A DNA stretch of 64,000 bases from an uncultured virus (IMG/VR IMGVR_UViG_3300027796_000194) (Duplodnaviria > Heunggongvirae > Uroviricota > Caudoviricetes). Below, in pieces: positions 1,343 to 51,739 of the stretch (the first letter of the stretch is position 1; the number at the start of each line of letters is the position of its first letter). The position numbers and the translations under genes were made by a program. Location: the IMG/VR virus record IMGVR_UViG_3300027796_000194; one strand, given 5' to 3'. Under the pieces are notes generated by a model. That model made no database searches and was not told the DNA's origin. It saw only the letters and a list, made by a program, of their open reading frames with translations.

Positions 1343-1525
1343 TTATCCAAATAGATCGAATGCGTTCCTGTTCGATAAAGACGAATTTCTTTCTCGGTTG
1401 AGTCATAAATCAAAAGCCAATCCGGATCGATATGGCATTTCCAAAGCCCGGCATAATCGCCGGATAGTTTATGGGGATGGTTCTTAAGAGGTAACGGCCT
1501 GTCATCAAAAAGAAGATCAATCCTC
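1343..1525 (-). pseudogene. yafQ: YafQ/RelE-family toxin remnant
   Basis: 'PLPLKNHPHKLSGDYAGLWKCHIDPDWLLIY...LYRTGTHS'. Adding one base after His restores GTHSDLFG-stop. The N-terminus is replaced by the upstream gene. Confidence 0.75.
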
Positions 1526-2215: not shown

Positions 2216-2574
2216 ACTCGGATTCCCATTTTATTTACAATACGTTACAGGCTTTAAAAAATTGGATACCCCACTTTTGTACCCCCGGACCCGAACGCTG
2301 GAAATTCGAACAGATCGGGTATCGAACCCGTGATCACTTTGCTTTTTTCCACGCTCATGAGTTTAACAAAATTTGTCGATTCAGACAATTTTTTTCTGCC
2401 CTTTGATGGTTGCCTAGGCAAAGTCGTAGTTCAGCAGATTTTCTTTAGTCCCTCCACACGAACCGTCAAAGCAAATGAAAAGCCTTTATTCGAATAATTA
2501 GGCGTCACATACTGTTTTGACAATGCGCTGCCTATATGGCTCGCTTCTGCAAACAAAGGGCTGGCTCTCACCTC

Positions 2575-6937: not shown

Positions 6938-7046
6938 GCCCCTAGAAGAAACATACTACACGAAGGGTTCCTTGTGGCTGTTTTTCCAGTGAAAGCACAT
7001 TAAGGACAACAATAAACAAACGGTACATGTTACATGCGCTGGCTAA

Positions 7047-9733: not shown

Positions 9734-11644
9734 TTACACAGACATACATATCTCATCATCACCAAACCACCCCTCCGACAGTACGTGTTGTTTCACAGCT
9801 TGCGGATTGGCGGAATAACAAACTATAGCCAGACTTTGTTGAGCGCGACTGCATGTAACGTACAACAAGCGGCGAGTTCTATCGATGCCAGTCTCTTCTC
9901 CTGCTTGTTCGTGTTCAATGTCCGTCTTTGTCTTTCCTTTTACACCAAACAGTTTTTCATAACTAAAAAGAAATCCGCGCGCCGATTCATCATCGATAAT
10001 AACCATCACGCGCGGGAATTGTAGACCCTTAACTCCTTGATGCGTGTCAAAATCAGCACAACCTTGGATGTACTCTATGTATCCTTCTAGCTGCGCAAAT
10101 TCGGAGATAAGCATTTTGTCCCACGCAGAAATCTGAGAGGAATCTTCTTCACTTTCCTCAGTGGTTGAGTCGATGGATTCCTCTGCGGCCTTCTGCTCTT
10201 CCTCACTTCTTGCGGCAATGGTCTGTAGTTTCCCCGGAATCTCAAAAAGCCCCGTTTTCTGAACAGAACGAAGAACATCAACAAATCGCGGCTCTTTCCC
10301 TTCCGTCCATAACAACAACAAATCTTCAACCGCCTTCCTTGCTTTGAGGATTTGTTCTGACTGCTTCTCTGGATTTGCCTTCAATGTTTCCTTGGACAGT
10401 AAAGGGGAAAACTTTCTAACGATTGCTGCAACCTTGAATTTGTCCCCGGCCTTTTGAGCCCTAATTAAAGGCAATACTTGATCGGAGAAAAACTTAATTC
10501 CTGCAAGGGAGCCATCTAAGAGACCGATGTTCAGTGTGCCTTGTTTATATAAAGGCTCGAACATCGGCAAAAAGCCCATTCGATGGGCCGCCATGTGATG
10601 TTCGAGTATAAGGGTCTTGACGCCGTTGTTTTGCCATTCCGGATCGCCAGTAACCGTTTGCATGTGGTTGGCGGCTTTTCGTTCAAGGGCCGGTTTACCT
10701 TCGGCTGCGCTGGGAAGAATGAATATCCGAACCCACCCATCTTCTTTATCTGATCTCGGCTTTTGTTCCTGTTCGTCAACAGCAGCCCGGATTTTATTTA
10801 TCAGCCGGATTATTCGCTTGGGACTACGGTGATTTATAGTTTTGGCTGGTCTAGCCCAGTCAGGGGGCAGATTGCGTCCAAGGTCAGGTTTCCCATCCGC
10901 ATAAATCCTTTGCATCATGTCGCCAAACAGACCTAAGCAGAACTGCTGTTCCCAAATTTTCTGAACTGCAAAAAACGATTCCATAAGTAATTTATTTGTG
11001 TCTTGGCTCTCATCGATCAACAGTACTGGAAATCGATTTACTAAAATTCGCTGCATTGTAGGCTTGTCTGTTAAAAACGAAGCCCCAATCTTTATCACTT
11101 CGCTATGATTTAAAGAATCTTTTCCAAGATTTTCACCATTCGGATTGTAGGTAAAAACCCTAATTTGATCGAGTTGAGCCAATCGCTCCTGTTTAGAAAG
11201 AATCGACCTCGCTCGGTCGGAAAAAGTTTTGGTTGTGTGGCTCTTCGCCTTGATTTGAAGTCCTTGGAGTTTTTCAACATCGCTGCGGAGGTTCTCTTTT
11301 AACCAAAGACGAATATCCGCGTTAAATCCTTTAATGAGAGACCAAACAAAACTATGAATCGTTGAAACTTCAATAAGCGAATCGTGATCGAGACGTTCTT
11401 CAATTTCATCCCGCGCCGCATTCGTATACGTAATAACTCCGACTCTTTGCCCCTTTAGCCGTAATTGTGAGGCACTTTCTTTGCGAAGGTCCCTTAGACA
11501 ATTAACAACCGACCGGGTCTTTCCTGAACCTGCGCCAGCAAAAAGAAAGAAGCTTTTTGGTTGAGAAAGATCAACGCACTTACCAATCTGAGCATCCACA
11601 GCTTTATCAATATCATCGTCTTTTATAAAAACTTCTGCGCTCAT
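9734..11644 (-). CDS. gajB: UvrD-like helicase, Gabija GajB-like
   Basis: Walker A 'AGAGSGKT', 'IDESQDT', 'GDMMQRIY', 'THQGVKGLQF', 'RRLLYVTCSRA'. Its start overlaps the end of the OLD nuclease gene. Confidence 0.85.
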   Translation of the reverse strand: MSAEVFIKDDDIDKAVDAQIGKCVDLSQPKSFFLFAGAGSGKTRSVVNCLRDLRKESASQLRLKGQRVGVITYTNAARDEIEERLDHDSLIEVSTIHSFVWSLIKGFNADIRLWLKENLRSDVEKLQGLQIKAKSHTTKTFSDRARSILSKQERLAQLDQIRVFTYNPNGENLGKDSLNHSEVIKIGASFLTDKPTMQRILVNRFPVLLIDESQDTNKLLMESFFAVQKIWEQQFCLGLFGDMMQRIYADGKPDLGRNLPPDWARPAKTINHRSPKRIIRLINKIRAAVDEQEQKPRSDKEDGWVRIFILPSAAEGKPALERKAANHMQTVTGDPEWQNNGVKTLILEHHMAAHRMGFLPMFEPLYKQGTLNIGLLDGSLAGIKFFSDQVLPLIRAQKAGDKFKVAAIVRKFSPLLSKETLKANPEKQSEQILKARKAVEDLLLLWTEGKEPRFVDVLRSVQKTGLFEIPGKLQTIAARSEEEQKAAEESIDSTTEESEEDSSQISAWDKMLISEFAQLEGYIEYIQGCADFDTHQGVKGLQFPRVMVIIDDESARGFLFSYEKLFGVKGKTKTDIEHEQAGEETGIDRTRRLLYVTCSRAQQSLAIVCYSANPQAVKQHVLSEGWFGDDEICMSV

Positions 11645-13956
11645 TTATTACACTCCGCCTTTGCGGTTAACCCCGTACCTTGCGATAAAATCTCTTCCTG
11701 CTTCTTCTTTAATTCGGCCCCAAGCCATTCAAGCCCCTCTTTTATGTAGGTGGGTATTTTCAAAGCTTGGGGGTCTTGCAAGAAAAGCAATTCTAACGAA
11801 AACTCTGCCTTGCTTTTGCATTCCTTCAAAATCTGAAAAAGTTCAGCCCCAAGTTCGGCACTTGTTGTTTTTGCACTGATTGCGTCCTTAAATTTCTTAA
11901 TCAACCCAGTTCCCACAAGACTTTTGAGCAATTTTAGGTTTTCATATGCAAACGCATCTTCAAAAGTGTTTGATAAAGCTTCTTCCTCTTGACCATTTTC
12001 GGCAAGAACAGCTTTTATCGGAATTTGGTATGCGACCCGAACGCCATTAGATAGGCTGTGTTTCTTCTCCTTCTTATCGGCAGTAAGACTTAGCAGGTCG
12101 TCAAGAGAACATTTTTCAGGAATCCATTTTTCTAAAGTAGCGTTTCCCGTAACAAGCCCTTGCCCGCGCACCGGCTGGCGAGATTGACGGTTAGCTTTCG
12201 GGTCTACGGCGTCAAGATCAGTGATGATTAAAGTCGTAAGACCAAGCTTATCAACAAGTGGGCGAAAACGATGGGCGTGGCTTCCGCCAATTTCAAGTAT
12301 GCTTATATACGCTTGGCTGAGTCCCTCGAACTGCGCCTGAATAAAATGTGGAACGAGCATTCGTTCCGCTGCCCCTTCAACAAGTATCGCGGCGTCTGCA
12401 AAAAATAAATCACAGTGAGTTGCTTTTAGATAGCGAGTTACAAATTTTTCCGTCTCATCTCCGGTCCCGAAAACCTCTGAAAGATTTTCGACGGTTGTTG
12501 TCGGCGCTTTACCGCCTTCTTCACAAGGCAGTCTTCGAAAATAACGAAGATCCTTAAACTCGCATTCATGGGCAATATGACTGGAGTGGGTGCTTACGAC
12601 AAGCTGCGTGCAAAGCGTCTCTTTATCTCCAAGCTGGTCGTGTTTGCGAAGGATGGCATACGCCTTGTTTATAAAAACCTGTTGCACCTGAGCATGCAAA
12701 TGAGCTTCGGGTTCTTCTATCAGAACAAGGTGCAGGGGCGCATGATCGAGGGACTCTCCTTCTTCAACGGGCCGCTTGGACGCTTTTCCAACTTTCATCC
12801 AGCTATCTCTAAAACTCATCAACCGGAAAACCATTGAGATCAGATTTTGGTATCCCAACCCGTTATATTCTTCTGGAAGACGTAAACTCTTGCCGTCGAG
12901 TTGCTGTACAACCTCATATTGAACAGCCGCACTATGATTGAGGCCATCTGTCGGACGAATCCTTGTTGCAATTGTAATTCTGGGATCGGTAACGCCGGGA
13001 TAACCTAATGCCTCGACCTCTTGAAGCGACGGCCCAAAACCGGTCTTTAGTCGTTCATCAAACAGTGATTGAGCGTCCTCGATAGCTTGAAGGGCCGCAA
13101 GATCGCTCGCCTCCGGCATATCGAATGGATCAAGATGCCTTGCATAATAAGAGCGAAGTTGTCCGGAGAGCCTTGGTTTTTCGTCACTGCTGTTAATATC
13201 GTCCTCAGCATCCGCAAATCCACTCGCGTCGGAGAACCCCCTTTGTGCATTAATTTGATTAATCCGAATTAGCCCCTTGAATGGGTCTCCATCAAGCGGA
13301 TCCGAGTCCATTGAGATAGGCTGAGGATTCGCTTTCCCACTCTCAGGCAATTTGCATTTGTCCTGATCTAAAATATAGCCCCTAACTTCAAAATGTCCCT
13401 TCAAACGACGGTCAAGAAAATCCCGCAAAGAGCAGGGCCACAGATTAACGGTTATTTTACTGGATTCGTCTTGCGGATTTTTTGCTGCTTCCTTTGCATC
13501 ACGAGCAGCGGTAGCAGCGGCAATAAACTCCTTATAAAGATTCTCAATTGATTTGGGCTCCAAGCGTAGCCGGACGCCTAATATGCCTTTTGTCCAATCA
13601 AGTGTTGGAAGCAGATGCCGAACATAATGGACTTCATTCTCCTTAACATCCAACCACACATCCAGCGCAGGCAGAAGTTTTTCCCACTTGGCAAGGTCAC
13701 GATCCTTGGCCTCATGCCCTCCTGCTTCTTCCAACCAAGCGGAACCAATCTCATTAATCGCAATCCAATTAGACAGCGTAAAATCATTTGTCGAAAAACT
13801 CTTACGCTCAACAAGAAATTGCCGGAGGGCAACCATTGCAGATGTTTTACCACTATTATTGGCTCCAACAAAAAGGGTTGTTTTTGAGGAGAAATCAATC
13901 CGAACGCTTTTCAGCTTTCGAAAGTTTTGAACTTCAACAAAAGCTATTCTCATCAT
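11641..13956 (-). CDS. gajA: OLD-family ATP-dependent nuclease (ABC ATPase + TOPRIM), Gabija GajA-like
   Basis: 'VGANNSGKT', 'IEEPEAHLH', 'STHSSH', TOPRIM 'LFFADAAILVEGAAE...ITDLD'. Confidence 0.85.
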   Translation of the reverse strand: MMRIAFVEVQNFRKLKSVRIDFSSKTTLFVGANNSGKTSAMVALRQFLVERKSFSTNDFTLSNWIAINEIGSAWLEEAGGHEAKDRDLAKWEKLLPALDVWLDVKENEVHYVRHLLPTLDWTKGILGVRLRLEPKSIENLYKEFIAAATAARDAKEAAKNPQDESSKITVNLWPCSLRDFLDRRLKGHFEVRGYILDQDKCKLPESGKANPQPISMDSDPLDGDPFKGLIRINQINAQRGFSDASGFADAEDDINSSDEKPRLSGQLRSYYARHLDPFDMPEASDLAALQAIEDAQSLFDERLKTGFGPSLQEVEALGYPGVTDPRITIATRIRPTDGLNHSAAVQYEVVQQLDGKSLRLPEEYNGLGYQNLISMVFRLMSFRDSWMKVGKASKRPVEEGESLDHAPLHLVLIEEPEAHLHAQVQQVFINKAYAILRKHDQLGDKETLCTQLVVSTHSSHIAHECEFKDLRYFRRLPCEEGGKAPTTTVENLSEVFGTGDETEKFVTRYLKATHCDLFFADAAILVEGAAERMLVPHFIQAQFEGLSQAYISILEIGGSHAHRFRPLVDKLGLTTLIITDLDAVDPKANRQSRQPVRGQGLVTGNATLEKWIPEKCSLDDLLSLTADKKEKKHSLSNGVRVAYQIPIKAVLAENGQEEEALSNTFEDAFAYENLKLLKSLVGTGLIKKFKDAISAKTTSAELGAELFQILKECKSKAEFSLELLFLQDPQALKIPTYIKEGLEWLGAELKKKQEEILSQGTGLTAKAECNK

Positions 13957-15313
13957 TCCCCCTATCATCCACAAAAACTTGGTTTTGGTCGCTCTCTGTA
14001 CCAGCTGTTGAATCTTGATGACTATGAATAACCGCCACGACAGCTTTTTTATCACGCAACACTGCATCTATAATTGTTGTAAAATCTTGGGTTTGTGCAG
14101 AAAATGAACCAATATATCCTGAGCGAAGCAGATCCATAAACGGAGATTGATGCAGAAATTGTCCATCAAGGCTTTCATACGTCAGACGAATTCCTCCGCG
14201 AGGACCTTTGCTTTTTGGGCTTTCAATATATTTCAGGTAATGATCTATGGGGAGGATAATGCCCCCGTGTCTGATGGCTCCGTCTCTTTTTACGAATTTT
14301 AGATAAAACGTTTCAGGATTAATTCGATATTCATGCGGGCCGGGGAGATGAGTTTTCGAGAACTTTTGCATCTTTTTAATTTGATCTTTTAATTTTTTAT
14401 CGGGGATATATTTCCAGTCACGCCCCCATTCTCCATCATATGGGTTAAGCATTTTATATTGCAGCATAATGATATTATTTTTTGTTTGGTTTAAATATAT
14501 AAGGTCAACCCCAAATGCCTCTTCGAGATTTCCTCGGTTCGCCGTATAAACTTCCAGTTGCTCGCCCGCTCTGCGAAAGACGGCTCGACCTGTAATGTCG
14601 CTATGAACTAGCTTATACCCCGGCATGTGTCTAGCATCATGCTCAACTACAGTGTCTTCTCTAAGACTAATCTGATCAAGCACCGATTCTCGTTTATCTG
14701 TCAGCTCAACTGATGTGGCTGGATCGTTGATCGTAAGACCAAAGGCACCCAACGCCGTACTAAGCGCATCAAGCTGGACTCCCTTAATAGTACGAAAGGT
14801 TTGTGGTGCGGAAATTGAAGCCTCAATCGCACGAAGGGTACTTTGGTTCGAGGGAAACGCCGCGAGTTTTTCTATGAGAAGACTGCTCAGTTTAGGGGTA
14901 AGATGGATAATAGAATCTGGGCTATTTAGCCTTGTTTTAAAATTCGTTGCATGTGGCTTCTCGGAGATCAGCTTTATAAGATCATCCTCAGAAGAAGGGG
15001 CAATCTGGGCGGCCTTTCTGACTTTAATTCTCGTGTCTAGCGTTGTTACACCGCCGCGTGAGCCAAGCACCCCCATAAAAAGGTTTTGTTTGTTGTCATC
15101 TCGCCCGACAAGGAGGCAAAGAGAAAGCGGGCTTATCCCATTTAATAAGCCATGAGGTTTTGCGAATGTAAATTCTGCGGTGCCATGTTTAGAACTACAC
15201 AACGCTTGCCATTCATCTTCACCAAACCGAATAACAACGACAGGTCTCTTTTCAACGGCTTTTTTAAGAGAGGAAAGCCAATCCGCCTTTATTTCTGAGG
15301 TATCAGCATTCAT
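13934..15313 (-). CDS. Putative PD-(D/E)XK nuclease with an unknown N-terminal domain
   Basis: 'LEEAFGVDLIYLNQTKNNIIMLQYKML' (D...QxK). Overlaps both neighbouring genes. Confidence 0.65.
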   Translation of the reverse strand: MNADTSEIKADWLSSLKKAVEKRPVVVIRFGEDEWQALCSSKHGTAEFTFAKPHGLLNGISPLSLCLLVGRDDNKQNLFMGVLGSRGGVTTLDTRIKVRKAAQIAPSSEDDLIKLISEKPHATNFKTRLNSPDSIIHLTPKLSSLLIEKLAAFPSNQSTLRAIEASISAPQTFRTIKGVQLDALSTALGAFGLTINDPATSVELTDKRESVLDQISLREDTVVEHDARHMPGYKLVHSDITGRAVFRRAGEQLEVYTANRGNLEEAFGVDLIYLNQTKNNIIMLQYKMLNPYDGEWGRDWKYIPDKKLKDQIKKMQKFSKTHLPGPHEYRINPETFYLKFVKRDGAIRHGGIILPIDHYLKYIESPKSKGPRGGIRLTYESLDGQFLHQSPFMDLLRSGYIGSFSAQTQDFTTIIDAVLRDKKAVVAVIHSHQDSTAGTESDQNQVFVDDRGNDENSFC

Positions 15314-16945: not shown

Positions 16946-17030
16946 TTGACTACACGCCCGCTAATGCCCATCCTGTACAAAGAGGCGGAGAAAGTCCGTC
17001 TCTGGGGTGTAGTTACCTCTTGGTTAGCGG
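16946..17030 (+). promoter_or_regulatory. Promoter plus a1/b1-type antisense target sites (C4-like module 1)
   Basis: TTGACT-N17-CATCCT, then a hairpin. TAGTTA (17010) and TGGTTAG (17021) are complementary to unpaired regions of the downstream RNA. Confidence 0.65.
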
Positions 17031-17073
17031 TTCTAGCGTTGCCGTCACAAACGCTGCCTTTCGACCCCTATGG

Positions 17074-17154
17074 GCCGGGAGGCGGCGGTGTATGTCCAAG
17101 CCTCACGGCCAAAGGCCGTCGCAGTCGTCTAACCACGATTAACTAACTCCCGGC
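17074..17154 (+). ncRNA. C4-like structured antisense RNA, copy 1
   Basis: Three-way junction. P1 is GCCGGGAG/CTCCCGGC and the core is TGTATGTCCAAGCC-N4-GGCCAAAG. Homologous to 32585-32665 with compensatory changes. Confidence 0.7.
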
Positions 17155-17208
17155 TCGCCAGAGGAAACCTCTTCTGGCGAGCTGATTTGCTCTTAGCCGG
17201 GAGGAGTT

Positions 17209-17646
17209 ATGCAAAAAAGATCCATTCTGTTTGTTTTGTTCTTCTTGTGCGCCTGTGCAAACAGAAGTGCTCCAGCATATGCAACCAATAGCGCAACCAC
17301 AGCAAAACCAAGCCAACGATATGAACAGACCATGGCGCAAACACGCATGGATACGACAGTTTGTATTGCCAAGGCCAACGCTGCCGTTCCGGGGGCCGGG
17401 GACTTGCTTGATGCGCAGACCTTACGGGATCGGCTGCGTGTGATTGAATGGAGCAAGCTTGTTGAAGACTGTTCGAGAGAAAAAGGGCTTCCCTACCACG
17501 ACTATTCCTACCCCTCGCTGGACGATATGAAGCGTTGTGAACGTGATGGCAAAAATGAAATGCCCAATGCGAAGCGAGAAGAACAAAGTGCCTACCTTGA
17601 AAGCTGCTTAGAAGTCCAAGGCTTTACTTTCCCATGGTATCACTAA
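17209..17646 (+). CDS. Putative lipoprotein
   Basis: Signal peptide with lipobox 'LCAC'. Strong SD GGAGGAG. Paired cysteines. Confidence 0.75.
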   Translation: MQKRSILFVLFFLCACANRSAPAYATNSATTAKPSQRYEQTMAQTRMDTTVCIAKANAAVPGAGDLLDAQTLRDRLRVIEWSKLVEDCSREKGLPYHDYSYPSLDDMKRCERDGKNEMPNAKREEQSAYLESCLEVQGFTFPWYH

Positions 17647-19756: not shown

Positions 19757-20980
19757 CTATGCGATCTTTCGCGATTTGAGAGAAACGACTTGTTTTGCCT
19801 CTTTCAACTTATCCAAATAATCCGCCCATTTTTGCATCATCTTTTTTCGCTCGTCCAAGTGCGCAGTGCGGTTGTAGGCGCGGCCATTGGGATCGCGGAC
19901 GGCGTGGGCGAGTTGATGTTCAATATAGTCCGGGCGGACGTGCAGTACTTCATCCAAGATCGTTCGTGCCATCGCTCGGAAACCGTGCGTTGTCATTTCA
20001 TCCTTGGAAATGCCCATGCGCCGGAATGCGGTTAGGATCGTGTTGTCGCTCATAGGGCGCGTATCGGTCAGGGCGCTTGGGAACAGATACTTTCCCTCGC
20101 CCGTTAAAGAGCGAAGTTCATTCAGGATTGCGAGAACTTGACGCGACAGTGGGACAATATGAGGCTCCCGCATCTTCATGCGTTCCGGGGGGATATTCCA
20201 TTGTTTCTCGTCAAAATCTATTTCGGCCCATTCCGCTTTGCGTAATTCGCCGGGGCGCACGAAAACAAGAGGCGCAATCCGCATTGCGCATTTGGTTGTA
20301 ATGCTGCCTTGATAAGCCTCAATGGCTTGCAGCACCGCGCCAACTTTCTTCGGGTCAGTTATCGCGGCAAAGTGTCCATCCCTCACAGGGCAGAGGGCAC
20401 CCCTTAAATCCGCTGTACAGTCGCGCGGTGCCCGTCCGGTTGCAACGGCATACCTGAAAATCTGCCCACAGTTCTGCAAAGCCCTGTGGGCCGTGTCACC
20501 GGCTCCACGGTTTTCGATCCGTCTCAGAACCATTAAGACTTCGGGAGGGGTAATCTCGGAAATGGTGCGTTTGCCAAGCCAAGGGAAAATGTCCAGTTCA
20601 AGCCGCCGGATGATCTTGCTGGTATGAGACTCGGCCCAAAGTGTGGATCGTGAGTCGATCCATTCCCGCGCAATGTTCTCAAAAGAGTCGGGGCCGCCGC
20701 CAACCTTTGCTTCCTTTGCCGCTTTCTTTTTGACCGCCGGGTCAATTCCTTGGGAAATCTCTTTGCGGGCGTAGAAACTGCGTTCCTTGGCTTCTTTAAG
20801 GCTCACGAATGGGTAGGAACCCAAGGCAAGGACTTTCTCCTTACCGTCGAAGCGGTATTTCTGCCGCCACAGCTTGCCCCCGGCAGGCGTGATCAGGATC
20901 AACAGGCCATCGCCAGCATAAAGCTTGTAAGCCTTATCCTTGGGTTTTGCATTTCTTATGGCAACGTCAGTCAGGGCCAT
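19757..20980 (-). CDS. int: P4-like tyrosine integrase with N-terminal arm-binding domain
   Basis: 'MALTDVAIRNAKPKDK', catalytic 'VRPGELR', 'HGFRAMA', 'LAH...AYNR'. Confidence 0.95.
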   Translation of the reverse strand: MALTDVAIRNAKPKDKAYKLYAGDGLLILITPAGGKLWRQKYRFDGKEKVLALGSYPFVSLKEAKERSFYARKEISQGIDPAVKKKAAKEAKVGGGPDSFENIAREWIDSRSTLWAESHTSKIIRRLELDIFPWLGKRTISEITPPEVLMVLRRIENRGAGDTAHRALQNCGQIFRYAVATGRAPRDCTADLRGALCPVRDGHFAAITDPKKVGAVLQAIEAYQGSITTKCAMRIAPLVFVRPGELRKAEWAEIDFDEKQWNIPPERMKMREPHIVPLSRQVLAILNELRSLTGEGKYLFPSALTDTRPMSDNTILTAFRRMGISKDEMTTHGFRAMARTILDEVLHVRPDYIEHQLAHAVRDPNGRAYNRTAHLDERKKMMQKWADYLDKLKEAKQVVSLKSRKIA

Positions 20981-21144
20981 AGTGGGGGTATCTCGAACGC
21001 GCTGGGGGTATGTTCGAGAAATCGTACCCCCAAATACCCCCGGATGCCAGCGATTTTCGCTGGTCGGCACTGGACGCTAAACCGTCATTTTTTGGCTGAT
21101 TTGCTGGGCTTTTTGAACTTCTTTGAACTTCCTTGGAAGTTCAA

Positions 21145-29532: not shown

Positions 29533-29882
29533 CGGCCCGCTGTAAATGGCATTTCGGCGGCGGGCCGGATTATTGCGGCGCTTGCGCGGACGCGGAACTG
29601 CCGTGCAGCAAAGGCAAAGAAAATGCGGAAGGCGAACGCTGCCCCTATTGCACGTCCGAGCCTCAAACGATGGAAGGATGGCAAGCGTGGGACGTGGCCT
29701 TGCGCTGCGCAGGGCAGCTTCGCATGGCGCAATTTGCCGTGATTGGTCTTGACATGGGCGCGGCCATCAAGATCGGTGAATCCCTCGGCTATGACGCGAC
29801 AGGTCTGGCCGAGCTTCTCCCCTCCTGCGAGTCAGGCATGGCCACCGCCATCAACGCAAAAGTTAATGAGGGCTTAAAGTAA
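29520..29882 (+). CDS. -1 frameshift extension of the tail chaperone (gpGT-like)
   Basis: The -1 frame is open from the slippery heptamer 29520-29526 to the tape measure start. 'CPYC...PQTMEGWQAWD'. Confidence 0.75.
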   Translation, partial: KKRLTARCKWHFGGGPDYCGACADAELPCSKGKENAEGERCPYCTSEPQTMEGWQAWDVALRCAGQLRMAQFAVIGLDMGAAIKIGESLGYDATGLAELLPSCESGMATAINAKVNEGLK

Positions 29883-32422
29883 TGGCTGAACGCAATCTCG
29901 CAATTCGCCTGTCCGTCATGGATGGCGGCAAGGTCAAGGCTGAGCTGAAAGAGATTGGGGAATCCGGCGAAAAGTCGCTCAAGAAGATCGAGCTTGCCGG
30001 AAAGCCTGCCTCTAAATCGCTTATCGCCTTGAACGCCGCCGCCAATGATGTGAAATCCGGTGCAGTCGGGTTAAGCGGACAAATCGGCCCCTTGGGTTCG
30101 GCTATGGCCGCGCTCGGCCCCGTGGGGCTTGCCGTTGGTGCGGCGCTGGGCGTGGTAACGCTTGGTTTAACGGCGAGCATTCAGGAAGCGGCTGAAGCGG
30201 AACGGTCTTACAATCGCCTTCAAGCCGTTCTACGCGCCACGGGGCATTCCTCCGGCCTGACGGCGCGGGAACTCAGCTCGTTTGCCGACGAGATGGAAGC
30301 GACGACTCTCACCACGGCTGAAGGCGTGATGGATGCCGCATCCGTTCTGGCGACCTTCCGCTCTGTGTCCGGCGAGACGTTTACGCGCACCATTTCTCTG
30401 GCGCAGGATTTATCATCTGTTTTTGGCAAGGATTTGAACGCTTCGGTTCTAGCGCTGGGCAAGGCGTTAGAAAATCCTGTCGATGGGCTTGGCGCACTGA
30501 AAAAGATTGGTGTCGATTTCTCGCCTGTCGAACAACAAATGCTGCAAGATATGGTCGATGTTGGAAATGCGGCGGAAGCGCAACGGATCATTCTGGACAA
30601 AGTCGCCCATTCTCTCGCTGGCACAGGGGGTGCGGAAGCGACAGGCGTGACGGGCGCGACCCATCAGCTTTCTGTCGCGTGGAAAAACATGCTGGAAGCC
30701 ATTGGCGAAACCTCCGTTGTGGCTGGAGCGGCGCAAGGCTCCCTTGAGGTTCTCGCCGCGACGTTTCGTGGCATGGGAAGCCTTTTCAAAGATGCGCCGC
30801 TTGGCGAACAATTGAGCGAGGCCAAAGCCGAACTGACCGAGGCGCAGGCGGTTCTTGAGCGCCTGTATAATTTTGATCCCAAGGGCATGATGAATATCGC
30901 GCCCCTTATCGAAGATCAGAAAGAGAAGATTTCAGAACTTCGCGCAGAAGTCGAAAAACTCACAGCGGCCTCGCAAAAAGAATCCGCTGCTATTGCTGCC
31001 GAGAAAGCGGAAGCCCTGAAGGGACAACAAACCGCCGCGCGCGCGAGCAACGCGGAGCTTGTTTCCAACGAGCGCAGAAAATTGGATGAGGCGCTGGACA
31101 AGCTGGTGAGTGATCCCGCCGCAAAGATTGCCAAGATCAATGCCGAGCTTGAAAAAACACGGGAGCGCATGGAAAAGCTCCGGGCGCGGGACGGCAGCGA
31201 TTCAAGCGCCATTGATGGGGTTATTAAACAGGCTGAAGAAGCGGCGCGTCTGCAAATTGAGGCCATTCAAAAGCCAATCAGCGAGACCGCACGAAAAGAA
31301 TCCGAGGCCAACCAGAAAATTATTGACGATTTAAAGCGGCAGCTTCTTGGGCTTGGCAATGAACGGCAAGCCTTTATCGATCAAGCGGTCTCGCGCCTTT
31401 CGGACAAGGCGGATGCAGGCAAAGTCGGGCAGACCCGCGATCTGGCCGCAAAATTGTTCGATCAAAAGGCGTTTTCGCAAGCCGAAAAAGTCATTGGCGA
31501 TCTTGGCAAGCAAATGGACGTGCTGGGCGACAAGCGCAAAGCGTTCATTCAGGGCGAACTTGCCAAACTTCCTGAAACGGTCTCGCAAGAACAAATCGAG
31601 CGGACAAAACAATATGCGGCGGCATTGTTTGAACGCACCGAAGCGCAGGAAAAACTCGACAGGCTGAAACAGGAAGGCAAGCAAATCACAGAAGGTGCGC
31701 GAAGCGCCGAAGAATCTTATGCCGAGCAAATTGCGCGGCTCACTGAAATGCTGAACGCGGGCGCAATCAGCCAAGACGTTTTCAATAAGGCCAAAGGCAA
31801 GGCTTACGACGAATCCCTTGCCGGACGCACGGACGCACAGGCCGGAGCGATCCGAGCCTTTCACGCCTACCAAAAGGAAGCCGAAAACACGGCGGGTGCG
31901 GTTGAGGAAGCCTTTACGGCGGCATTGAAGGCAACCGAGGACGCCATTGTGAACATGGTCACGTCCGGCGAGATTAGCCTCAACAGCCTCAATGATCTGG
32001 CCAACAGTATTGTTGCCGACATAACCCGCATGGTGGTGCAACAATCGATCACGGGGCCTCTATCGAAATGGATGGGCAGCAGCATGGAGAGCGGCGGGTT
32101 TTTGGACAGCGTGTTCAGCTCGATCTTCCATGAAGGCGGCACAGCTGGTGAAACCGCCCCCTCTCGGCAAGTTCCGGCCTATGTGTTCGCTGGCGCGCCG
32201 CGTTACCACGGCGGTGGCATTGCAGGACTGAAGCCCAACGAAGTTCCGGCGATTCTTGAGCGCGGCGAAACCGTGACCCCCAAAAACAAGCGCGGCGCAC
32301 GTTCAAGTGTGAATGTCGTCATGAACATTACAACGCAGGATGCAAACTCTTTCCGCGCCAGCCAAGGTCAGATCGCCGCCAAAGCCGCACGAGGCATCAG
32401 CCGGGCCAAGCGGAATATGTAG
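29882..32422 (+). CDS. Tail tape measure protein
   Basis: 846-aa helical A/E/K-rich protein. C-terminal 'FHEGG...PRYHGGG...DANSFRASQGQI'. Confidence 0.92.
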   Translation: MAERNLAIRLSVMDGGKVKAELKEIGESGEKSLKKIELAGKPASKSLIALNAAANDVKSGAVGLSGQIGPLGSAMAALGPVGLAVGAALGVVTLGLTASIQEAAEAERSYNRLQAVLRATGHSSGLTARELSSFADEMEATTLTTAEGVMDAASVLATFRSVSGETFTRTISLAQDLSSVFGKDLNASVLALGKALENPVDGLGALKKIGVDFSPVEQQMLQDMVDVGNAAEAQRIILDKVAHSLAGTGGAEATGVTGATHQLSVAWKNMLEAIGETSVVAGAAQGSLEVLAATFRGMGSLFKDAPLGEQLSEAKAELTEAQAVLERLYNFDPKGMMNIAPLIEDQKEKISELRAEVEKLTAASQKESAAIAAEKAEALKGQQTAARASNAELVSNERRKLDEALDKLVSDPAAKIAKINAELEKTRERMEKLRARDGSDSSAIDGVIKQAEEAARLQIEAIQKPISETARKESEANQKIIDDLKRQLLGLGNERQAFIDQAVSRLSDKADAGKVGQTRDLAAKLFDQKAFSQAEKVIGDLGKQMDVLGDKRKAFIQGELAKLPETVSQEQIERTKQYAAALFERTEAQEKLDRLKQEGKQITEGARSAEESYAEQIARLTEMLNAGAISQDVFNKAKGKAYDESLAGRTDAQAGAIRAFHAYQKEAENTAGAVEEAFTAALKATEDAIVNMVTSGEISLNSLNDLANSIVADITRMVVQQSITGPLSKWMGSSMESGGFLDSVFSSIFHEGGTAGETAPSRQVPAYVFAGAPRYHGGGIAGLKPNEVPAILERGETVTPKNKRGARSSVNVVMNITTQDANSFRASQGQIAAKAARGISRAKRNM

Positions 32423-32455
32423 CTTATCAAGACCTTGGAATAGTTCGTTTTTATG

Positions 32456-32545
32456 TTGACCCAAGAAGGACTTACCTTCATTCTGGGCGCATGAAGGCAA
32501 GTTTCATACGCTTGCCTTCTGAGGATTCAAACCTCCGTGAGCGGT
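32456..32545 (+). promoter_or_regulatory. Promoter plus a1/b1-type antisense target sites (C4-like module 2)
   Basis: TTGACC-N17-CATTCT, then a hairpin. GAGGATTCAAA (32521) and CGTGAG (32536) are complementary to the downstream RNA. Confidence 0.65.
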
Positions 32546-32584
32546 ATGACATCATCCGTTAAGGATGTCGCCTTTCGGCTATGA

Positions 32585-32665
32585 CGCCGGGGGGCGATAC
32601 TGTATGTCCAAGCCGTAAGGCTAAAGAGTATCGCACCGATCTCACGTCGGTTTGAACCTCCGGCG
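32585..32665 (+). ncRNA. C4-like structured antisense RNA, copy 2
   Basis: P1 CGCCGGGGG/CCTCCGGCG, P2 GCGATAC/GTATCGC, core TGTATGTCCAAGCC-GTAA-GGCTAAAG, P3 ACCGA/TCGGT. Confidence 0.7.
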
Positions 32666-32716
32666 ACCAGCGGAATTTGCCGCTGGTCGATAAAATCAAA
32701 CCGAAGGGAAACACCG

Positions 32717-32881
32717 ATGAACGACATCTCCACTTGGCAACTTTGTTCGGACTTTTTGAAAGCCTATTTGGGCGATCCGATCATATTGACGCTTTTACTT
32801 CTCCTGATTATGGGCGTAGGCGTGAGCCTGCGCTTTAAGAAAATCGAAAAGAAACTGCTGCCAAATCGTAAGGCACCATAA
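32717..32881 (+). CDS. 54-aa single-TM peptide with basic tail (not in ORF track)
   Basis: MNDISTWQLCSDFLKAYLGDPIILTLLLLLIMGVGVSLRFKKIEKKLLPNRKAP, with SD-like AAGGGA upstream. Confidence 0.6.
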   Translation: MNDISTWQLCSDFLKAYLGDPIILTLLLLLIMGVGVSLRFKKIEKKLLPNRKAP

Positions 32882-32924: not shown

Positions 32925-33140
32925 ATGCGCTTGAATTTTCTTGATGCTGATGTTTCTGCCCCTTGTCAACGCATGTCGCTTGCTATCGCAAGCATTATTC
33001 GAGCAAAAGGTTCCTGCCGACGAAGCGACCTACAGGATAATAATTTTTCGGCAGAAGAGATTCGCTCTTGCTGGAACATTGCATACGGGCTTGCTCATGT
33101 TGAATTAATGGGAAGCCGTAATGATATAGTTTTTCATTGA
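32925..33140 (+). CDS. Small hypothetical protein (paralogue of 53977-54249 and 55493-55729)
   Basis: Shared 'M..AI.....G.C...DL....F...EI...W..A'. SD GAGGAG. Confidence 0.7.
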   Translation: MRLNFLDADVSAPCQRMSLAIASIIRAKGSCRRSDLQDNNFSAEEIRSCWNIAYGLAHVELMGSRNDIVFH

Positions 33141-33270
33141 GTTCCTTTGAAAAGGCACGCCAAAAGGAACTGTTGCCTTCATAGTCCCGCATGGTCTTAT
33201 ATGAGGGCAACAACAAAGAGAGCGGGTCGTGTCCTCGCGGCCACGCTCTTTCTTTGAAAGAGAGTTTGAT

Positions 33271-33681
33271 ATGTCCTTGATCCACTGGAACAACGATTTG
33301 AGCGTCGGCATCCCCTCTATCGATGCGCAGCACAAAAAGCTCTTGGATTTACTCAACGAGCTGCACGGTGCGACCTATCAGGGAAAAGGACAGGAGGTCG
33401 TTGGCAACACGTTGGCCGGACTTATCAGCTACACGGTTGAACATTTTCAGTATGAAGAGAAGCTGTTCAAAGAAACAGGCTATCCCGAAGCGGAAGCACA
33501 CGCAGCCGAGCATGTTATCCTGACCAAGAAAGTCATGGACATTCACGAGAAATTCAAAAGCGGCATCACAACAGCGTTGACGCAAGAAGTCCTCCTGTTC
33601 TTGGTCAATTGGCTTATGGACCACACGATGGACAGCGACAAAAAATACAGCGCGCATTTAATCGCCGCTGGGGTTCAATAG
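33271..33681 (+). CDS. Bacteriohemerythrin
   Basis: 'W...LSVG...ID.QH', 'HFQYEE', 'H...H', 'WLMDH....D': the di-iron ligands appear complete. Confidence 0.92.
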   Translation: MSLIHWNNDLSVGIPSIDAQHKKLLDLLNELHGATYQGKGQEVVGNTLAGLISYTVEHFQYEEKLFKETGYPEAEAHAAEHVILTKKVMDIHEKFKSGITTALTQEVLLFLVNWLMDHTMDSDKKYSAHLIAAGVQ

Positions 33682-48406: not shown

Positions 48407-51400
48407 TCACTTCGGCGGCGCGATTGCTTTTAGCTCAGGGCGCTGCCTTGGCAGTTTTGGCGGAACCAGCGGCCCGCGTATTCTTAGTCTTTCGCTTTGC
48501 GCGTCGAAAGCGCGTTCCATGTCCTCCATGTCCCTGATCGCACGGGCGTGGGCCCGATGGTGCGCGGCGGCGCGGGCCTCGTCCAAACGTCTAGCAAAGC
48601 CCTCGAAGCTTACCTGCGCTTCGTTGAGGCGCATGACCTGTCCGTTGAACTGCCTTATCTTGCCGATGGTACCCATCACGTTCTGCTGACCTTCACGGAT
48701 CTGCTTGCGCAAAAGCTGATGATAGGAGTCTTCATCCTCACGAAGACCCGTGACGTATCCCCGGACAAGGCCGTCGAACTTTTCGAGGTGTGGGTCTTTC
48801 ACCGACTCCAGCGCGGCATCCATCAGCATAACGTCTTTGCGATCACGCCGCTTTTTGGAAGGTGCCAGTTCGGCACGACGCGACACGGCGTCGCCAACCG
48901 TCTTGATGTCGTCCGGCAGATCATATCCGGTCAAGGGCGTGTCAAAATAGGCCTCCAGCTCCTTGCGCGTTTCCACGCCCTTTTCAGGGAGAACGGCAAG
49001 TTCTTGCGAGACTTCTGGGGCCAACACCTCGGCCTCGAACATCTCCGGCATCGGAGCCGTGCGACTTGTTAAAGCGCGTGGTGGTGGCGGGCCAAGTTTG
49101 GTGGGCGTGACCAAAGGGGGCTGGACAAGATAATCGCCTCTGTCGAAGTCAAAGAACTTCTCGCGGACTCTCCCATATTTGCGCAATTTGTTGGCGTAGC
49201 GCACCCAATCCCCCGAAGACCAGCCACTTACGGCACCGCTTCGGATTTCTCCAAATAACTCACGGCTGGTTGCTAGATTGGCGCGGTGCTCTTCCAACAG
49301 TTCCGTCAATACCTCATGACTGTTAGCCAGAGCGGACTCCATCTTCCCGTTTCCGGTAACGAGTTCATGCTGCCGCTCGACGGTTTCGTTTATATACTCC
49401 TTGGTGGCATCGTGAGCTTCCATGACGGGATCAAGTTGATCCCTGACCATCTTCATGGCCGCACCGCGCATGTCCGTGTAGTCCTTCCAGCAAACAAACT
49501 TCTCGCGTACCAGTTTGTATCGCTGCCATGAGGCGGCGGCTATGCCCGTCAACATCAACGCGCCAAACGTGATTCCGGCAGCCATAATTGAACCGCCGAC
49601 ATAGCAAGTCGTAGCGACTCCGGCTGCGGTCGCGGCCTTGACGTATGGACTGCGGAAGAAACTGTTAAAGAAGCCGGGCTTTTCATTGAACTTGTCCAGC
49701 CGATACCGCGCTCCGAGATACCTTTCGCAGGTCTCTTTAACGCCTTGCCCCCATTCGGAAAGCTTCGCGGGAGCCGTCCACGCGACAGGATTCTTAGGCA
49801 CCCAATTCAGCTTGCTTTCGTCCAAATTGAACCCCTCCAGATCAACGGGCGGCATCGGCTTCAGCCGTACAACCGTCTTCTTGGGCGGATCGGGGAAAGC
49901 AGGAGCTTCAGGTATAGGCGGGCCTTCCGCACGCTCCCTCAAAAACGGTATTTCATAGTATCGCGCCTGCTGGTCCAAAGTGCAATGGCTCTGCTTCCTG
50001 CCGCTGATAAAAAGGATCTGTTTTTCACCGGAAAAACAATCTTCTATCTGACGGGCATCCATTCCATCTATGACAATGGGCTGATAAGACAGGTTATAAT
50101 TCGTGCTCCAACTCTCGTTGTTGTTGCGCCCCTTTTGCGTGGTTTCGCTTTCAGCGGTGCCTCCCCCCTTGGAATCGGTCTTGCCGGACTGGGTTGACTC
50201 ACCTTGCGTGTCAGCCGTGCCGTGGGAGGTCGATGTCGAGCCACCCGATCCGGAACTTGATCCACCGGGACCGGACATGCTGCTCCAAAAGTTAGAAAGC
50301 GTTGTTACGATGGAGTTCGTTTTTTGGGCCGTCCTTCCGACAGAGTTTGAGACCGCGACTTGCCAAGTATTTTGGTCAACCGTTCCCTTGGCGACAGACT
50401 CTTGCTCCCCAACGCCGAGTTGGATTCCCTGTCCTTCGCTCACGGTCGGCACATAGACCATGTAGCGGCCAAGACGCTTGCTGATATATTCAATCGATTT
50501 GGGTTCGTGACTGCGAAGAAACTGGACGACTTCCGAAGACCCAAGAAAAGCGGCGGCTCGTTCTTCGCCGTAAACATCCCTCAGACTTGCGTAGTCCTGA
50601 AACAAGCTCCAAAAGATGATGCCTTTTTGGCGTACCGTTTGAGCGCCCGTCGCAATGGCCTGAAGATGCCCCAGTTGCGTTAACTCATCGATCATGAACA
50701 GGATGCGGTCTTCCTTCTTAAAGTCTTTTCCTCCATTGCCCGGATTAGGCGTGCCATCAATTGCGCTTTGCAAAATAAGACGAAGCCACGGCTGATAATT
50801 GATATACTCGTCAACGTTCGGCATGACGATGTAGATCGTCGTTTTTTTGCCACGCAGGTCCATCATGGAGAAGTCCGAGGAAACCATGTGCTGACCAAGA
50901 CAATCATCAGCCATCCATTTGTCTAACCATTGGGAAGTCGCCGTGACGACGGAGCGCACGTTCTGGTCTCCGGGTTGGGCCGTGCTAAGATAATTTCCGA
51001 ACTTATTCAGCAATCTTTGATGCGGGCCGCGCCACCCTGTTAGCTCTGCAATGTGTTTGTCCCACGCTTCCGACGGAAACTCGCTGAAGATTTTTGCCAT
51101 ATAAACAAAATTCTTGTGCTCATAGGGTATTGTGTCTGCCAGCTTCAGATAGACGATCATCGCCGCAATAAGACCGCTCGGATTTTCCCTAAAATAGGGA
51201 TTTTGCTCCTTATGTCCCTGCGAATCTGATATGAGAGCAGATGACATTGTTAGAATGCGGCTATAAAAATCAGGCTCCTTTGGATCTAGATCGTCCATAG
51301 GATTGTAGTTGCTTGATCCCAATCCGATGATGTTCTGGGGATCAAAAATATAAATATCCTGCCCAAGAGTCCATTTGCGATGATTGTAAGTCCTCTTGAA

Positions 51401-51739
51401 CGTAGCCCCGCCGATCTCAAGGGAAACAACGGAGCCTGCATAGGATAAAAGGTTAGACGTTGCCGAAGCGGCGGTCTTTCCCGATCCTGTATTGCCTATG
51501 ACGTTCCCGTGCGTTTCAACATCCTGATAAATAGGCACGCCATTATACGCGCCGACAATGAGACCATGGGGATCAGCAAGACAATCCGATCCATTGTCCA
51601 TGACGTTCTGGACGGAAATGAGTGCCTTGTTGTCGGCATGGTATTGAACGGGGGCTATATTGAAAGGCCGTTCAATTGCCCTGTCCAACTTCGTGAGGAC
51701 TTGGAGTTCCTCTTTTTTCTTTTCCAAAACTGGGAGCAT
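48407..51739 (-). CDS. VirD4/TraG-like coupling ATPase with Ser/Thr/Gly-rich insert and C-terminal TM/coiled-coil extension
   Basis: Walker A 'GNTGSGKT', 'YNPMDDL', Walker B 'FMIDELTQLG', 'FQDYASLRDVYG'. Confidence 0.85.
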   Translation of the reverse strand: MLPVLEKKKEELQVLTKLDRAIERPFNIAPVQYHADNKALISVQNVMDNGSDCLADPHGLIVGAYNGVPIYQDVETHGNVIGNTGSGKTAASATSNLLSYAGSVVSLEIGGATFKRTYNHRKWTLGQDIYIFDPQNIIGLGSSNYNPMDDLDPKEPDFYSRILTMSSALISDSQGHKEQNPYFRENPSGLIAAMIVYLKLADTIPYEHKNFVYMAKIFSEFPSEAWDKHIAELTGWRGPHQRLLNKFGNYLSTAQPGDQNVRSVVTATSQWLDKWMADDCLGQHMVSSDFSMMDLRGKKTTIYIVMPNVDEYINYQPWLRLILQSAIDGTPNPGNGGKDFKKEDRILFMIDELTQLGHLQAIATGAQTVRQKGIIFWSLFQDYASLRDVYGEERAAAFLGSSEVVQFLRSHEPKSIEYISKRLGRYMVYVPTVSEGQGIQLGVGEQESVAKGTVDQNTWQVAVSNSVGRTAQKTNSIVTTLSNFWSSMSGPGGSSSGSGGSTSTSHGTADTQGESTQSGKTDSKGGGTAESETTQKGRNNNESWSTNYNLSYQPIVIDGMDARQIEDCFSGEKQILFISGRKQSHCTLDQQARYYEIPFLRERAEGPPIPEAPAFPDPPKKTVVRLKPMPPVDLEGFNLDESKLNWVPKNPVAWTAPAKLSEWGQGVKETCERYLGARYRLDKFNEKPGFFNSFFRSPYVKAATAAGVATTCYVGGSIMAAGITFGALMLTGIAAASWQRYKLVREKFVCWKDYTDMRGAAMKMVRDQLDPVMEAHDATKEYINETVERQHELVTGNGKMESALANSHEVLTELLEEHRANLATSRELFGEIRSGAVSGWSSGDWVRYANKLRKYGRVREKFFDFDRGDYLVQPPLVTPTKLGPPPPRALTSRTAPMPEMFEAEVLAPEVSQELAVLPEKGVETRKELEAYFDTPLTGYDLPDDIKTVGDAVSRRAELAPSKKRRDRKDVMLMDAALESVKDPHLEKFDGLVRGYVTGLREDEDSYHQLLRKQIREGQQNVMGTIGKIRQFNGQVMRLNEAQVSFEGFARRLDEARAAAHHRAHARAIRDMEDMERAFDAQSERLRIRGPLVPPKLPRQRPELKAIAPPK

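Follow-up and report, generated by a model that had tools for sequence, protein, structure and literature searches.

The c4 RNA of phage P1 is processed by RNase P and holds the icd and ant genes untranslated by antisense pairing, and the c4 RNAs of P1 and P7 reportedly differ by matched changes in the RNA and in its sites, as Citron and Schuster are said to have found in 1990. In satellite phage P4 the CI RNA is a processed leader RNA that is complementary to upstream and downstream sites, seqA and seqC, and its immunity types covary. A third RNA, sRNA-Xcc1 (RF02221), is said to have been presented as a trans-acting small RNA by Chen et al. in 2011, to judge by the title. The excerpts available on sRNA-Xcc1 describe a discrete RNA of ~88–100 nucleotides (nt) on Northern blots (PMC2996969); they have it first found within an integron cassette and treat it as a small RNA of unknown target that lies near symE in integron cassettes, in tandem arrays in Xylella and in APSE phages. 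Here we examine two copies of a structured RNA in a 64,000-nt stretch of DNA from an uncultured virus of the Caudoviricetes (IMG/VR IMGVR_UViG_3300027796_000194), the whole of which is referred to as the window. Copy 1 lies at 17073–17160 and copy 2 at 32585–32669. We consider it probable, at roughly 60%, that each locus is a self-contained antisense-RNA cassette of the c4/sRNA-Xcc1 type carried on mobile DNA. Judged from sequence and by analogy, control at these loci would be of the c4 kind, exerted from an uncatalogued alphaproteobacterial scaffold related to sRNA-Xcc1.

This adds a large structured-RNA family that is absent from current catalogues, and ties both it and sRNA-Xcc1 to the mechanism of P1 c4, which gives a concrete hypothesis for RNAs that the excerpts available treat as trans-acting with unknown targets. 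The subfamily to which the window copies belong has the upstream but not the downstream sites of c4, and so makes the long-unclear role of c4 sites a1 and b1 directly testable, and a genome with two copies that are orthogonal by nature offers a ready pair for specificity swaps. The programmability for which the original prediction made for this DNA proposed loop swaps is not a new principle but the c4 logic of the 1990s on another scaffold.

Two copies of one RNA scaffold

The 64-kb window has two exact occurrences of the 14-nt core TGTATGTCCAAGCC, at 17089 and 32601, both on the plus strand, as had been predicted; with up to two mismatches allowed, shuffled sequence averages 0.29 matches. Pairwise alignment of the two modules gives 73% identity over ~300 nt, and their folding compared with shuffled sequence has z-scores of -7.7 and -5.9. 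The arms of stem P2 carry compensatory changes at the predicted places, reading GCGATAC/GTATCGC in copy 2 and GCGGCGG/CCGTCGC in copy 1. A covariance model, R1, built from the alignment of homologues described below, scores 95.4 bits on copy 1 and 82.0 bits on copy 2 and at most 10.6 bits in the rest of the window, which goes far past what chance would give. The claim of a single RNA scaffold in two copies that differ in their recognition sequences is supported. The two RNAs and their parts are as follows.

32585–32669, plus strand: structured small RNA, copy 2 (RF02221 33.6 bits, R1 82.0 bits, covarying compact fold)
32585–32593/32657–32665, plus strand: stem P1 of copy 2
32594–32601/32627–32634, plus strand: stem P2 of copy 2, with a conserved internal loop and the hairpin GCC-GUAA-GGC
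32635–32640/32646–32651, plus strand: stem P3 of copy 2
32641–32645 and 32652–32656, plus strand: loop b' and junction a' of copy 2, with the tail ACCA
17073–17160, plus strand: structured small RNA, copy 1 (RF02221 31.7 bits, R1 95.4 bits, predicted fold)
17073–17081/17147–17155, plus strand: stem P1 of copy 1
17129–17134 and 17141–17146, plus strand: loop b' and junction a' of copy 1, with the tail CGCCA

As isolated RNAs both copies are predicted to take a compact fold, at -39.7 kcal/mol, which consists of the closing stem P1, stem P2 with an A-rich internal loop and a tetraloop hairpin, stem P3, a junction and a CCA-type tail. The two segments that the original prediction had called guides are, in this fold, the loop of P3 and the junction between P3 and P1, and these would be the recognition elements b' and a', respectively. 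The 3' strand of stem P1 holds the anti-Shine–Dalgarno sequence CUCCC and its 5' strand the Shine–Dalgarno-like GGGAGG.

Leaders that match their own RNA

Each RNA is preceded by a leader and followed by a hairpin, with the features listed here.

32456–32484, plus strand: promoter-like string TTGACC-N17-CATTCT of copy 2, read directly
16946–16974, plus strand: promoter-like string TTGACT-N17-CATCCT of copy 1, read directly
32493–32519, plus strand: 5' leader hairpin of copy 2, from minimum-free-energy folds (equivalent in copy 1, 16981–17003)
32521–32535, plus strand: small hairpin GAGG-AUUCAAA-CCUC of copy 2, with site a1 (UUCAAACC) in its loop
32536–32541, plus strand: site b1 of copy 2, CGUGAG, complement of the P3 loop CUCACG (32641–32646)
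17004–17027, plus strand: leader of copy 1, with the hairpin GGGG-UGUAGUUA-CCUC that holds a1, then b1
17010–17015 and 17021–17027, plus strand: sites a1 (UAGUUA) and b1 (UGGUUAG) of copy 1, complements of the junction UAACUA and the loop CUAACC(A)
32568–32597, plus strand: hairpin P0 of copy 2, from predicted folds
32664–32689, plus strand: hairpin after the RNA of copy 2, CGACCAGCGG/CCGCUGGUCG, with no U-run, from predicted folds
17151–17194, plus strand: terminator-like hairpin with a T-rich tail after copy 1, from a terminator scan (15 pairs, tail ATTTGCTCTT)

The leaders of the window copies read GGGG-a1-CCUC-b1-CGG. In copy 2, site a1 is complementary to the junction GGUUUGAA at 32650–32657, and TTTGAACCTC (32651–32660) is complementary to GAGGATTCAAA (32521–32531) with one bulged A; together with CTCACG and CGTGAG these are the guides and the sites ~100 nt upstream that had been said to match, and they do. 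To call the latter target sites was right as to complementarity, but they lie in the RNA's own leader, where they correspond to a1 and b1 of phage P1, and not in a regulated target. Because the matching sites are in the leader of the same RNA, the pairing shows specificity and not what is regulated. That the two specificities are orthogonal, as had also been proposed, agrees with the predicted duplex energies. These are -22.9 kcal/mol (copy 1) and -24.0 kcal/mol (copy 2) with the RNA's own leader, against -6.5 and -9.6 kcal/mol with the leader of the other copy, the value of -6.5 being that of copy 1 RNA with the copy 2 leader.

The shared promoter fared less evenly. The strings TTGAC(T/C)-N17-CAT(C/T)CT are there, but an E. 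coli-type consensus scan calls neither of them, because the -10 box matches at only three of six positions. Exact TTGAC is nevertheless enriched among homologues, where it falls within the equivalent upstream window (-190 to -115) in 35 of 105, against 3–8 of 105 in four control windows of equal size.

When the full transcripts are folded, an extended structure that takes in the leader is predicted to be more stable than one in which stem P1 is forced, at -100.4 against -87.9 kcal/mol for copy 2 and -105.7 against -98.7 kcal/mol for copy 1. In P0 an upstream arm is paired with the 5' strands of both P1 and P2, and formation of P0 therefore excludes the compact fold. On the 3' side, the hairpin at 32664–32689 has no U-run and is not called by the terminator scan, which makes read-through from copy 2 into the peptide gene that follows it plausible.

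Conservation in homologues

Homologues were gathered with sequence probes. The exact 14-mer TGTATGTCCAAGCC has matches at no fewer than 120 loci in viral contigs, and among the matches listed one alone (L039) carries the RNA, the rest being chance or coding matches; a looser pattern gave seven true viral loci among 33, and the probe ATGTCCAAGCCNNNNGGCYAAAG found at least 120 genome contigs. Among the matches listed for this last probe nearly all are from Alphaproteobacteria (Sphingomonadales, Caulobacterales, Rhizobiales, Micavibrio and Magnetococcales). In total more than 100 distinct homologues were collected, mainly from Alphaproteobacteria and some from viral contigs. They share the conserved central domain AUGUCCAAGCC-NNNN-GGCYAAAG, although the core is invariant within this set by construction, because the probe fixed it. 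Alignment A2 contains 102 distinct sequences and is the source of R1; left out of it were a chance match (L174), a 5'-truncated sequence (L222), a duplicate of the window sequence (L128) and the 12 variants that have an additional hairpin. A second alignment, A3, covers leader and RNA in the 37 sequences of the subfamily that contains the window copies.

RNAalifold run on A2 recovers P1, P2, the inner hairpin and P3, with compensatory changes in 19 of the 27 pairs. In A3 the compact fold has 96.8% of its cells paired, compared with 33–50% in slid controls, and 15 of 31 pairs are compensatory; its covariation score was reached by none of 500 shuffles. P0 is likewise seen in A3, with 90.3% of cells paired and compensatory changes in 7 of 14 pairs.

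Maintenance of guide and target complementarity in homologues had been set beforehand as the test of the original prediction, and it was found. Both sites, each of at least 6 nt and in the order a then b, are present upstream at 73 of 102 loci; when loci are swapped, the mean is 0.7 and the maximum 3. Within the region from -110 to -36 the longest exact complement averages 7.96 nt at a sequence's own locus and 5.19 nt at other loci. Upstream complements of 9 nt or more occur at 41 of 109 own loci and in 0.9% of other pairs, the mean upstream duplex energy is -16.3 kcal/mol for own and -10.3 kcal/mol for other loci, and own upstream pairing ranks in the top 5% at 68 of 102 loci, compared with 5 of 102 in a far-upstream control. 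Three controls, far-upstream, far-downstream and same-sense, are flat. In A3 the specified pairs are formed in 90.6% of cells, against 78% when shuffled and 35–55% with slid partners; the helix of b1 with the P3 loop has compensatory changes in all six of its pairs, and the helix that comprises a1 with the junction, the GGGG:CUCC pairs and the extension of b1 has them in 10 of 14. The excess of own-locus pairing and the covariation of these pairs together show that guide and leader complementarity is maintained in homologues.

The variable segments follow the local leader and not any shared target. This is at odds with a stand-alone trans-acting small RNA with its targets elsewhere, in which base pairing to the leader would only help the RNA to mature or to remain stable and the gene that follows would be unconnected cargo. 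Such an RNA would agree with the description of sRNA-Xcc1 that is reported from the title of Chen et al., and with the terminator-like hairpins which, by a strict rule, follow the RNA in 19 of 105 cases, copy 1 included, and the anti-Shine–Dalgarno CUCCC would fit many messenger RNAs. In duplex scans and a two-site search of the window, however, the only candidates other than the RNAs' own leaders are at chance level, and copy 2 has a copy-specific complement at the ribosome-binding site of its neighbour. We regard a purely trans-acting RNA as unlikely.

The leader and the 3' half of the RNA form a long imperfect inverted repeat, and sRNA-Xcc1 was, in the excerpts available, first found in an integron cassette, both of which would suit a DNA-level element of inverted repeats (a recombination, replication or single-strand DNA site) that has no RNA function. 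Against it are the G-U pairs that are conserved on this strand, at columns 6/161 in 33 of 37 sequences and at columns 133/153 in 24 of 37 in A3, which would be A-C mismatches on the other strand; many such pairs speak for RNA rather than DNA function. The orientation relative to the promoter-like box and the downstream gene is also fixed, and there is no recombinase gene beside copy 2, which sits between tail genes. An element of this kind is very improbable.

Column 90 of A3 covaries with column 65, in P0, and with column 161, in P1, and this three-way alternative indicates that alternative structures are conserved. It fits the main rival to an antisense cassette, a purely cis-acting conformational switch (an attenuator, riboregulator or riboswitch-like leader) in which two conformers would set terminator efficiency or ribosome access while the core binds a protein or ligand. 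The downstream sites of c4, a2 and b2, are absent from most members, and among loci with 1.5-kb flanks an open reading frame on the same strand nearly always begins within a few hundred bases. The anti-Shine–Dalgarno CUCCC and its counterpart GGGAGG form the two strands of P1, several downstream ribosome-binding sites read GGGAGUU, complementary to AACUCCC, in the sequences listed, and in many of these P1 shares its last bases with the stem of the terminator that comes next. Other features speak against a leader that acts in cis alone. The lack of a common downstream function counts against a metabolite riboswitch; tandem complete units (three in the viral contig L124) and one to ten copies per genome are typical of small-RNA genes; the sister RNA sRNA-Xcc1 is a discrete RNA by Northern blot in the excerpts available (PMC2996969); and relatives that have a2 and b2 show the antisense layout. 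We think this explanation doubtful, although the trans-acting RNA and the DNA element are both less likely than it is.

Relationship to c4 and sRNA-Xcc1

The likeness to the CI RNA of satellite phage P4 is one of general description, and the outcome there is premature transcription termination. With phage P1 the comparison can be made element by element. In the annotated record (AF234172) the promoter is followed by a1, which has the sequence TTGACAG and is placed in a hairpin loop, and then by b1, the 77-nt c4 RNA, a2, b2, icd and ant, with b2 covering the Shine–Dalgarno sequence of icd. For recognition c4 itself has the loop of its second hairpin as b' and, as a', the junction that precedes the closing-stem 3' strand; its tail is CCACC. 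The window loci resemble this immI region in their order, from a promoter through a1, again in the loop of a small hairpin, to b1, a structured RNA and a first gene, in using one hairpin loop and the junction before the closing-stem 3' strand for recognition, and in the C/A-rich, CCA-type tail. The P1 leader, CCGG-UUUUGACAG-CCUG...GUUAGUGCGG, parallels the GGGG-a1-CCUC-b1-CGG of the window, and, as is reported for P1 and P7, the specificity types differ by matched changes in RNA and sites. The central domain of the window family differs from that of c4, the family has in P0 an additional hairpin that competes with the compact fold, and P1 c4 is not matched by R1. The first genes downstream in the window encode a peptide of 54 residues and a lipoprotein-like protein of 145 residues, not icd and ant.

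sRNA-Xcc1 provides the bridge. In a permissive Rfam search RF02221 was the sole consistent match at the two loci, and in both it was full-length (1–87). The two families share the same three helices, the A-rich internal loop, the tetraloop hairpin, the junction and a CaCC tail, and both are multi-copy and patchily distributed. RF02221 passes its cut-off in 24 of 151 genomes of a phylum-wide sample, and R1 matches, weakly, 10 of the 14 best RF02221-passing loci at the same places. Among these genuine sRNA-Xcc1 loci (L278–L291), 12 of 14 carry two upstream complementary sites of at least 6 nt, by our own count of the listing, and 9 of 14 carry two downstream sites that flank the Shine–Dalgarno sequence and the start codon. 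Their leader reads GGGG-a1-CCCC-b1-CGG, as in the window family. What sets them apart is the core sequence, a U-run terminator that, among the loci listed, often stands between leader and RNA, as in IsrK, and that the window subfamily does not have, and the a2 and b2 sites at the downstream ribosome-binding site, which most of them (9 of 14) keep and the window subfamily lacks. The excerpts available of papers on sRNA-Xcc1 contain no description of c4-style matched sites at its loci.

At gathering thresholds no Rfam family was found anywhere in the window, and blastn in its distant mode matched neither module to any of 50,697 phage records. The core string TGTATGTCCAAGCC appeared in no relevant context in a literature search, all of the matches listed being unrelated to this RNA, and literature searches found no paper that links 'c4 antisense RNA' with Alphaproteobacteria or 'c4-2' with 'c4 antisense'.

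Several other classes of element were considered and set aside. A metabolite riboswitch is ruled against by the unrelated families of the downstream genes (71 proteins, 50 of them with no family), and an IS110 bridge RNA or IS605 omega RNA by the lack of an adjacent recombinase or nuclease gene and of an Rfam match; the immediate neighbours of copy 1 are a PIN-like gene and a small lipoprotein-like gene. There is no reverse transcriptase nearby, as a retron msr/msd would require, and the strand-specific G-U pairs speak against attC-like DNA.

Downstream sites

Three features downstream of the RNAs bear on what they might regulate.

32717–32881, plus strand: 54-residue open reading frame of copy 2, a small hydrophobic peptide (open frame, Shine–Dalgarno sequence AAGGGA, hydrophobic stretch)
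32696–32704, plus strand: a2-like site UCAAACCGA, which abuts the Shine–Dalgarno AAGGGA of this frame
17209–17646, plus strand: gene for a 145-residue protein with a lipoprotein-like N-terminus, the first after copy 1

At copy 2, UCAAACCGA is a perfect 9-nt complement of UCGGUUUGA at 32647–32655, and the ribosome-binding region is predicted to form a duplex of -16.1 kcal/mol with its own RNA and of -5.4 kcal/mol with that of copy 1. A search for two downstream sites found no b2 partner for this a2-like site. The peptide had been described as a transmembrane peptide resembling Icd/Kil or type I toxins; the frame is indeed open and has a hydrophobic stretch, but the likeness to Icd/Kil is one of position only, since neither Pfam nor PHROGs nor PADLOC has a family that it matches, and its relatives consist of itself and one protein that is 89% identical. 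As regards a possible type I toxin–antitoxin system, the observations are a hydrophobic peptide of 54 residues that matches no family and a copy-specific 9-nt complement at its ribosome-binding site.

At copy 1, the 145-residue protein has no family match in Pfam, PHROGs or PADLOC. The ribosome-binding region of its gene, GGGAGGAGUUA, is partly complementary to UAACUAACUCCC of the RNA, a pairing that involves the anti-Shine–Dalgarno part only and is not copy-specific, at -10.1 kcal/mol with its own RNA and -11.2 kcal/mol with the other.

A number of results weigh against an antisense cassette of the c4 type. Functionally, c4 is defined by its downstream pair of a2 and b2 over the ribosome-binding site. 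Neither window copy has the full pair that phage P1 has, nor does most of the family: a2 and b2 are both present at only 9 of 102 loci (0.5 expected), and in the 37-sequence subfamily the a1 hexamer of a locus is found again downstream in 2 of 37 and its b1 word in 1 of 37, which does not exceed the rate for swapped loci. Copy 1 in particular has no copy-specific downstream site, none reaching 6 nt. When the window was searched for trans targets, RNAduplex placed the RNAs' own leaders only fourth and ninth amid a GC-rich background, and a two-site word search gave co-occurrence at chance level apart from those leaders. The models C4 (RF01695) and c4-a1b1 (RF03163) match at neither window locus at E-values up to 10, and the same search finds both models in P1, with 68.8 and 51 bits; RF02221 misses its gathering score of 53 with 33.6 bits on copy 2 and 31.7 bits on copy 1, and on 20 homologous loci none passes, the best reaching 39.3 bits. 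The genes that follow the RNA are so diverse that a single immunity role for the whole family is unlikely. Finally, short contigs (151–251 nt) from four runs labelled RNA or possibly RNA cover 32402–32752 and 33054–33300, but some of the libraries may be DNA and two of the contigs start before the predicted start of transcription, so that they are uninformative on expression, ends or strand.

The loci that do carry both downstream sites form a clade (L130, L144, L195, L200, L218, L232, L240, L258 and, doubtfully, L169) with AGG or GGA at the end of b2. Among the genes that follow the RNA in this clade are one for a P22-type antirepressor (P22_AR_N, L195) and, in the provirus of L130, one for a Rha-type regulator. 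Control of an antirepressor or cell-division-inhibitor operon is thus represented among these relatives, and no such family lies downstream in the window.

The scarcity of a2 and b2 admits another view of most of the family, namely that the RNA has lost its downstream targets and pairs only with its own leader, as a portable, self-addressed RNA switch that may sense the presence or copy number of kin elements; we hold this to be possible but improbable. The mutually exclusive helices, P0 against P1 and leader against guide, would then choose between a terminated small RNA and read-through into, or translation of, the cargo, which would be lipoproteins, membrane peptides, extracytoplasmic function (ECF) sigma factors, or GGDEF or HEPN proteins. 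RNA set free from resident copies would act back on leaders of its own type alone, and the conserved core might be a platform for binding a protein or ligand.

Proposed mechanism

For a c4/sRNA-Xcc1-type cassette, which remains our preferred reading, we propose the following course of events. A promoter would drive a leader with a1, in the loop of a 4-bp hairpin, followed by b1 and then by the ~85-nt RNA. In the primary transcript the leader may mask the recognition segments, the extended fold being by prediction 7–12 kcal/mol more stable. Processing, by analogy with c4, could then free the compact RNA, the NCCA tail after stem P1 being the sole hint of it; a CCA-type tail resembles the RNase P determinant of c4, and CCA is found within 8 nt past P1 in 54 of 102 sequences, both window copies included.

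The freed RNA would act on transcripts of matching specificity. That of copy 2 would most likely pair through a' with the 9-nt site near the Shine–Dalgarno sequence of the peptide gene and block its translation, as c4 does for icd and ant. The sites in the leader may serve as a decoy in cis or as an autoregulatory site, and the different a' and b' would let two cassettes share one genome with no cross-talk.

Distribution and downstream genes

R1 finds one to five copies in each of five source genomes and one to three in each of five viral records. In a sample of 151 genomes from the class of a Rhodopseudomonas genome it has matches in 24, with 1–10 copies each (23 of 150 when the unpublished genome G046 is left out). 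The 71 distinct proteins encoded downstream comprise nine ECF sigma factors, five GGDEF proteins, three HEPN plus nucleotidyltransferase, one antirepressor and 50 with no family. A lipoprotein theme among them is suggestive only: a crude lipobox occurs in 9 of 71, one of them probably false, and a hydrophobic N-terminal run in 13 others. In provirus G296 two copies of the RNA (L294 and L295) lie 5.6 kb apart, each before a gene with a lipoprotein-like signal, an arrangement comparable to that of copy 1.

In Sphingopyxis and its relatives the RNA lies ~100 nt 5' of an ECF sigma-factor gene (L158, L182, L187, L190, L192, L198, L205, L230 and L233); this looks like a conserved chromosomal arrangement and not phage cargo. 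The same RNA sequence, with a GGDEF gene after it, is found in L157, L164, L165, L191, L201, L207 and L213, the last differing by one base, on contigs labelled as seven genera that include Sphingomonas, Novosphingobium, Thiobacillus, Stakelama, Croceicoccus and Bradyrhizobium, which suggests either a mobile element that has spread very recently or contamination in binning.

The viral contig L124 has its three complete leader-plus-RNA units in tandem, with a period of 297 nt and differing junction sequences; in the context of L293 they are followed by genes for an HTH_3 regulator and an Ogr/Delta zinc finger, and the viral record is P2-like and 95% complete. The extra-hairpin variant carries its insert after the 5' strand of P2 and ahead of the conserved core and is represented by 12 sequences (L150, L169, L206, L217, L228, L245, L247, L252, L268, L270, L271 and L273).

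Genomic context of the two copies

The two copies belong to distinct elements. Copy 2 is placed in a prophage tail module, between a lambda-type tape-measure gene (29882–32422) and distal tail genes that start at 33705, as part of an insert that consists of the RNA, the 54-residue frame, a 74-residue frame and a hemerythrin gene. This last gene (33229–33681, plus strand) encodes a hemerythrin domain with a Pfam E-value of 1e-12.

Copy 1 belongs to an integrase-linked defence island next to a Gabija system. The Gabija pair is complete and lies on the minus strand at 9734–14067, with GajA at 11641–14067 (808 residues, 980 bits) and GajB at 9734–11644 (636 residues, 832 bits); upstream of it on the same strand are a gene for a 459-residue protein and a weakly PIN-like gene for one of 519 residues, with no family. 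Copy 1 begins ~75 nt past this block on the opposite strand, and is followed on its 3' side by the genes for the 145-residue protein, a zinc-ribbon protein, a winged-helix protein and an integrase (19757–21070). The nearest virus record, G001, starts just to the right of this integrase and contains copy 2 only. The original prediction had assigned one of the copies to a satellite, and no satellite hallmark was found among the features examined in the element of copy 1.

Elsewhere in the window, other mobile or defence genes encode a YafQ-type toxin domain, an Mrr-like nuclease and two DUF5677 proteins, and a type IV secretion coupling protein (TraG/VirD4-like) is encoded to the right of the tail genes; the coordinates of these genes are 1108–1584 (minus strand), 2536–3531 (plus strand), 6053–8279 and 48407–51739 (minus strand).

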